Of a stretch of DNA of 64,000 nt, positions 31,580-32,264 are shown in pieces (positions within the stretch are counted from its first letter, which is position 1; each line of letters starts with the position of its first letter). The DNA is from Escherichia phage vB_EcoM_SP1: the sequence record MT682709.1; one strand, given 5' to 3'. The notes under the pieces were generated by a model. The model searched no databases. It was not told the origin of the DNA and saw only the letters and a list, made by a program, of their open reading frames with translations. A program made the translations under genes and the position numbers.

Positions 31580-31809
31580 TGTCTGAACAAACTATTGAAC
31601 AAAAACTGTCTGCTGAAATCGTAACTCTGAAGTCTCGTATCCTTGATACGCAGGACCAAGCGGCTCGTCTGATGGAAGAATCCAAAATTCTGCAAGGAAC
31701 TTTGGCTGAAATTGCTCGTGCAGTAGGTATCACTGGCGATACTATCAAAGTTGAAGAAATCGTTGAAGCTGTCAAGAATCTTACTGCTGAATCTGCTGAT
31801 GAAGAATAA
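31579..31809 (+). CDS. 57A: tail fibre assembly chaperone gp57A
   Basis: 76 aa coiled-coil protein after gene 1. Confidence 0.75.
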
Positions 31810-32264
31810 TGGAATTTAAAGACTTTTCAACGGGTCTTTATGTAGCAGCTAAGTTTTCAGAATTAACACTTGATGCGCTGGAAGAACTCCAGCGCTCTTT
31901 ACGTGTTCCTAATCCAGTTCCTAGAGAAAAAATTCATTCGACCATATGTTATTCAAGAGTAAATGTTCCATATGTTCCATCGAGTGGAAGTTTTGAAGTA
32001 GCTTCTTCTGGACATTTAGAAGTATGGAAAACACAAGATGGATCGACTCTTGTACTTGTACTAGATTCTGAATATCTGCGCTGTCGACACATGTATGCGC
32101 GGGCACTAGGTGCTACACATGATTTTGATGATTACACACCGCATATAACATTGTCTTATAATGTTGGACCCTTATCATTTAGCGGTGATGTACAAATTCC
32201 GGTCGTATTAGATCGTGAATACAAAGAGCCTCTTAAACTCGATTGGGCAGATGATTTAAAATAA
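31809..32264 (+). CDS. 57B: gp57B / Acb1-like 2H phosphodiesterase (anti-CBASS)
   Basis: 151 aa; two HxT/S motifs (HSTICY, HITLSY) typical of 2H phosphoesterases; T4 57B position. Confidence 0.75.

Follow-up and report, generated by a model that had tools for sequence, protein, structure and literature searches.

Gene 57B of Escherichia phage vB_EcoM_SP1 encodes a protein identical in sequence to the anti-CBASS phosphodiesterase Acb1 of phage T4

The DNA analysed here, referred to below as the window, is a stretch of 64,000 nucleotides from Escherichia phage vB_EcoM_SP1 (sequence record MT682709.1). At 31809..32264 on the forward strand (stop included) it contains an open reading frame that starts with ATG and runs for 151 codons plus a stop, which we refer to as acb1 (gene 57B). 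The gene is immediately preceded by a 76-aa reading frame (31579..31809, forward strand) that is identified by Pfam GP57 (PF17594, E=4e-51) as gp57 (gp57A), the tail-fibre chaperone. The ATG of acb1 and the TAA stop of 57A share one base, giving the arrangement TAATG (sequence GAATAATGG), and this overlap is a consensus-type signal through which the translation of the two genes is probably coupled. The 57A product measures 76 aa, whereas those of T4T and GEP001 measure 80 aa; near its C-terminus, at about window position 31797, an in-frame deletion of 12 nt, as judged against T4 and GEP001, has taken out DEAK from between two GATGAAG direct repeats. The order of genes in this region, namely 2, 3, 1 (dNMP kinase), 57A and 57B, is that of T4. 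The same synteny is kept in Bragavirus, Krischvirus, Lazarusvirus and Cronobacter phage S13, with downstream genes that differ in each.

Gene 1 contains, some 360 nt before 57A, a match to the T4 late-promoter consensus (TATAAATA; 31216..31223, forward strand), and T4T has the same motif with conserved flanks at the corresponding place. Judged by its sequence, this element is a candidate promoter that probably serves the late transcription of 57A and 57B. Together with the TAATG overlap it suggests that the two genes are co-expressed late, consistent with the reported appearance of Acb1 activity about 15 min into T4 infection (PMC9117128). Scans of the DNA around acb1 gave 16 sigma-70 promoters against 12.5±3.6 in shuffled sequence, and one terminator against 1.4 in shuffled sequence, and thus no excess of either. 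What was retained from these scans is a T4-conserved site past the acb1 stop, in addition to the separate late-promoter motif. This promoter-like site (TTTACA-17-TACTAT, with TG; 32278..32306, forward strand) occupies the spacer after acb1, within the last stretch conserved with T4, and belongs to the downstream ipI-type gene.

Collinearity with T4 extends from 27821 to 32364, at 96.7% identity, and is then broken. Within the collinear stretch lie acb1, the promoter-like site just described and the beginning of the next gene, as far as its seventh codon (MKTFKEF). A preliminary description of this DNA, made from the letters alone, had placed 57B at the boundary between a conserved module and the variable ipI locus, and this placement holds, the collinearity ending about 100 nt past the acb1 stop. 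Beyond that point the single ipI of T4 is replaced by two unrelated reading frames on the forward strand, 32343..32615 (90 aa) and 32676..32984 (102 aa). These have only an N-terminal leader, MKTFKEFINEA, in common with each other and only MKTFKEF in common with T4 IPI, and neither has a match in Pfam. In front of each stands a copy of the conserved promoter/leader segment (32259–32348 and 32632–32697), and both copies match T4 inter-cassette sequence. We consider that the two probably encode alternative packaged internal proteins. Full-length 57B is carried by 559 phage records and the 1.3 kb downstream of it by 37 records; the whole downstream arrangement of the ipI locus is intact in 37 of 877 matching phage records.

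Some further differences from T4 were noted outside this locus. Ten tRNA genes (Gln, Leu, Gly, Pro, Ser, Thr, Met, Tyr, Asn and Arg) are found at 33623..34450 on the forward strand, compared with eight in T4T. The cluster lacks two T4 genes, trna.3 and the homing-endonuclease gene segB, and is nearer to that of GEP001 than to that of T4. It is followed by a 116-aa reading frame without a Pfam match (34467..34817, forward strand), where homology to T4 is interrupted. Finally, the homologue of T4 Tk.4 (45827..46291, forward strand), a gene annotated in T4T with an A1pp/macro-domain motif, is 58% identical to its T4 counterpart. Since its neighbours are 91–99% identical, the divergence of this allele is local; its product is possibly involved in ADP-ribose processing.

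Of the five histidines in the acb1 translation, two belong to H-x-T motifs; H-x-[ST] occurs exactly twice, as HSTICY (residue 43) and HITLSY (residue 112). The preliminary description had pointed to these two sequences in the 151-aa reading frame after 57A and had read them as the HxT/S catalytic signature of the 2H phosphoesterases. Both are present at H43 and H112, and the tetrad is indeed that of the 2H phosphoesterase fold, with the minor correction that both motifs are specifically H-x-T. The first catalytic motif, H43-S44-T45, is encoded at 31935..31943 and the second, H112-I113-T114, at 32142..32150, both on the forward strand; residues H43, T45, H112 and T114 are H44, T46, H113 and T115 in the 152-aa T4 protein of the published work. 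Taken alone, the motif pair is weak to modest evidence for a 2H enzyme, because two or more H-x-[ST] motifs also occur in about 16% of shuffles of the acb1 protein. By the stricter measure of two H-x-T-hydrophobic motifs lying 50–90 aa apart, the frequency is 0.06% of 20,000 shuffles, and the paired H-x-T motif is unique to acb1 among the 74 reading frames of at least 100 aa in the window. It is context and spacing that make the pair specific, and homology that decides.

Pfam Acb1 (PF23474) matches the acb1 protein over profile positions 1–144 of 144 with 202.7 bits (gathering cut-off 27; E=2.6e-60). Among PDB sequences searched with phmmer, the best match is Acb1 of Erwinia phage FBB1 (7T26/7T27; E=4e-62, 68% identity), with whose HxT/HxT tetrad that of the acb1 protein aligns. 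Searching 5.8 billion proteins yielded 78 homologues, each with PF23474 and the UniRef name 'Anti-CBASS protein Acb1', and an alignment of 46 of them, reaching down to 28% identity, formed the basis for examining conservation and for modelling the structure. Across these 46 homologues H43, H112 and T114 are each conserved in 46/46 and T45 in 45/46, the exception being a serine. The nucleobase-stacking aromatics Y11, W73, F106 and W146 and the adenine-reading E140 are all present in the protein, and correspond to the stacking residues Y12, W74, F107 and W147 and to E141, which contacts adenine, in T4 Acb1 (PMC9117128). Conservation at the binding positions is also high, with Y11 in 44/46, E140 in 43/46 and W146 in 41 of the 42 sequences in which it is aligned.

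Structure prediction gave a concordant picture. A single-sequence AlphaFold2 model was uninformative (pLDDT 37) and was replaced by a model built on the 46-sequence alignment, with a pLDDT of 89.7 and a pTM of 0.82. Its fold is the compact one of 2H enzymes, in which a beta-sheet pocket occupies the centre and a flexible lid forms the C-terminus, and low confidence is confined to the N-terminus and to residues 146–151, where the lid is located. The lid comprises residues from about 145 to 151, including W146 (32241..32261, forward strand), and is the element that would close over bound cyclic nucleotide; the low pLDDT at 146–151 is consistent with the flexible lid, residues 145–152, described for FBB1 Acb1. 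A Foldseek comparison with the PDB placed 7T26 first, with an rmsd of 0.8 Å over 136 columns and TM scores of 0.88/0.96, followed by 7T27, the Burkholderia phage 2H phosphodiesterase (PDE; 9Q2Y/9Q2G) and then LigT, Usb1 and other 2H enzymes (TM ~0.5). Superposition of the model on the 7T26 crystal structure at this rmsd suggests that the His–His and tetrad geometry is 2H-like. Two checks proposed in the preliminary description thus had a positive outcome: both catalytic histidines are found on alignment to Acb1 (PF23474, 7T26/7T27 and T4T gp57B), and the paired-motif geometry is supported by a confident model that fits an Acb1 crystal structure.

The same description had called gp57B an Acb1-type 2H phosphodiesterase, which is borne out by 100% identity to T4T gp57B and a full-length PF23474 match, and its statement that T4 57B is Acb1 was correct. 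T4 gene 57B was found by activity-guided fractionation to encode a 3'3'-cGAMP-degrading enzyme, which was named Acb1 (Hobbs et al. 2022, Nature 605:522; PMC9117128). According to the same work, T4 Acb1 is a 2H phosphodiesterase that needs no metal and cleaves 3'3'-cGAMP, cUA, cAAA and cAAG, and that inactivates cAAG signalling too; c-di-GMP, cA4 and the 2'-5' bond of 3'2'-cGAMP are not cleaved. The reaction runs via a cyclic phosphate intermediate to GpAp, and an H44A/H113A mutant is catalytically inactive (PMC9117128). T4 Δacb1 has a >300-fold defect on CBASS hosts and grows normally without CBASS (PMC9117128). The C-terminal lid is needed for the activity of T4 Acb1 (bioRxiv 10.1101/2025.08.21.671373), and the enzyme was later shown to degrade 2'3'-c-di-AMP as well. 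When over-expressed, T4 Acb1 can trigger Panoptes; deletion of acb1 from T4 leaves Panoptes defence unchanged, and it is Acb2, not Acb1, that triggers Panoptes during T4 infection. T4 Δacb1/Δacb2 is in routine use in later work.

The identity and function of Acb1 are, then, already known, and the protein described here has the sequence of the founding, experimentally and structurally characterised member of the family. We conclude that the reading frame at 31809..32264 is almost certainly acb1 (T4 gene 57B) of a T4-like Tequatrovirus, encoding a stand-alone 2H phosphodiesterase that hydrolyses CBASS cyclic di- and trinucleotides.

Since its sequence is identical to that of T4 Acb1, the protein of the window would be expected to have the same activity. 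By the mechanism shown for the T4 protein and its FBB1 orthologue, a U-shaped beta-sheet pocket would hold the cyclic nucleotide, with Y11, W73, F106 and W146 stacking on the bases and E140 reading the N6 of adenine. With the C-terminal lid shut over it, the strained ligand would expose a 2'-OH that attacks the 3'-5' bond in line. Metal-independent acid-base catalysis would fall to the H43/T45/H112/T114 tetrad, and cleavage 3' of adenosine would yield a linear 3'-phosphate product, for example GpAp, by way of a 2',3'-cyclic phosphate intermediate. Predicted substrates are 3'3'-cGAMP, cUA, cAAA, cAAG and 2'3'-c-di-AMP, and not c-di-GMP, cA4 or the 2'-5' bond of 3'2'-cGAMP. Hydrolysis of the signals made by the CD-NTase of host CBASS would mean that the effectors are never activated, and the phage would thereby escape abortive infection.

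In some other phages the Acb1 domain is fused to the portal protein. The most distant Acb1 homologues are C-terminal domains of portal proteins (Pfam Phage_portal_3), found in Pseudomonas, Rhizobium, Synechococcus and Pseudanabaena (Pam3) phages, and in these fusions PF23474 is matched at E=1e-35 to 1e-43 with the HxT motifs intact. Examples are gp70 of Pseudomonas phage psageK9 (1052..2854), proteins of Rhizobium RHph_Y2_17_2 (1145..2992) and Synechococcus Ssp-JY40 (1124..2983), and the portal of cyanophage Pam3, in which the Acb1 domain comprises residues 459–609 of PDB 8HDS chain A; a full-length portal-type Acb1 domain was found in 36 phage records. The portal–Acb1 fusion is not mentioned in the Acb1 paper, the 2H-PDE survey or the Pam3 structure paper. 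It is not new, because 2H fusions to portal and MuF domains have been reported, and packaging into the head proposed, by Iyer et al. 2022 (PMC9503650). Separately, ZHS_4 of Edwardsiella phage vB_EpM_ZHS (2116..2715, 199 aa) is a free-standing Acb1-domain protein (PF23474, E=3e-22) encoded between the terminase and portal genes, and its annotation as 'prohead protease' is probably wrong.

The portal fusions in other phages mean that some Acb1 could be carried in virions; virion association of the free-standing, T4-type Acb1 is speculation on our part. A related idea is that the fixed place of acb1 in the late head/tail block (2-3-1-57A-57B) is functional, such that production of the enzyme coincides with virion assembly or the enzyme itself takes part in that process physically; the prohead protease has lately been reported to trigger CBASS, at the stage of head assembly. 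We regard this idea as improbable.

A different function for the gene product was also weighed. It might be an RNA ligase or RNA-repair 2',3'-cyclic phosphodiesterase of the LigT/2'-5' RNA ligase type, acting on broken tRNA or RNA ends near the cluster of 10 tRNA genes, which lies about 1.3 kb from acb1. The protein does match PHROG 755, labelled 'RNA ligase', at E=5e-68, the same label is present in many GenBank phage records, and the 2H superfamily fold is common to LigT (Foldseek E about 1e-4). However, Pfam 2_5_RNA_ligase2 (PF13563) scores 13 bits (E=0.11), below its cut-off of 27, against 202.7 bits for Acb1, and no NCBIfam model matches the protein. The similarity to LigT is also remote, with a TM of about 0.5 and 10–16% identity as against 0.88 and 68% for Acb1. 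Moreover, the identical T4 protein cleaves cyclic oligonucleotides and is dispensable unless CBASS is present. Rejected by Pfam, NCBIfam and the fold search, this function is very improbable, and the label 'RNA ligase' seems to have been inherited from the superfamily and not to reflect a tested function. Less credible still is a role for the product as a morphogenesis accessory factor that helps gp57A to assemble tail fibres. Such a role might be suggested by the historical name 57B, the TAATG overlap through which 57B is probably coupled to 57A and the 57A–57B adjacency across several Straboviridae genera. However, T4 Δacb1 grows like the wild type without CBASS, which speaks against the gene being essential for assembly, and a T4 deletion mutant is already reported to have normal tail-fibre assembly and burst size; the catalytic tetrad of the protein, an enzyme, is intact and universally conserved, and shared late timing accounts equally well for the adjacency.

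Identification as Acb1 has practical consequences. Among 1,485 phage records with an acb1 homologue, most give 'RNA ligase' (the PHROG 755 name) or 'hypothetical protein', and very few refer to anti-CBASS activity or a phosphodiesterase. The error is systematic and concerns a counter-defence gene that has been characterised: most public T4-like genomes mislabel acb1, so automated pipelines will miss a known anti-CBASS gene. For the window itself, acb1 matters as a correct annotation only and advances no open question. We also observed a homologue of Acb2 (Vs.4) at 43878..44141 on the forward strand (96.6% identical to T4T Vs.4; Pfam Acb2_Tad1_hairpin PF24729, E=1.2e-19), so that both known T4 anti-CBASS proteins are encoded in this phage, about 12 kb apart. 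With both Acb1 and Acb2, the phage would be expected to withstand most types of CBASS whose signals are 3'-5' cyclic di- and trinucleotides containing adenine, a prediction of use in forecasting host range or selecting phages for therapy.

The closest known system is T4 itself. All 151 residues are identical to those of T4 Acb1 (gp57B, NP_049750.1), and the gene is 99.1% identical to T4 57B at the DNA level, with four differences, all synonymous. The position after 57A, the upstream late-promoter motif and the downstream promoter are common to both phages. T4 has an ATGATG start, annotated with an extra N-terminal Met to give 152 aa, whereas the window has TAATG and the second ATG only; the two also differ in 57A, from which 12 nt are absent here, and in the downstream ipI locus. 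FBB1 Acb1, known as the apo form (7T26) and with the 3'3'-cGAMP product (7T27), is of the same length class and shares the HxT/HxT tetrad and the C-terminal lid, with conservative swaps at two of the base-stacking aromatics, W73 being F and F106 being Y in FBB1.

More distant comparisons are with the other viral 2H enzymes, namely the Burkholderia phage BCSR5 PDE (9Q2G/9Q2Y), the 2',5'-PDEs ns2 of coronavirus and VP3 of rotavirus, and the avian poxvirus cGAMP PDE, and with the cellular enzymes LigT, Usb1 and CPDase. All share with Acb1 the 2H fold, the two HxT/S motifs and metal-independent transesterification via a 2',3'-cyclic phosphate (10.1101/2025.08.21.671373), but at 10–20% identity and TM 0.4–0.7. 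The lid of PDE-9 is N-terminal, in contrast to the C-terminal lid of Acb1, and the substrate ranges of the 2H enzymes differ, covering 2'-5' oligoadenylate, RNA ends or narrower cyclic dinucleotide sets. Acb2 (T4 Vs.4), finally, has its target pathway in common with Acb1 but an unrelated fold, and acts as a sponge that sequesters the signals instead of cleaving them.
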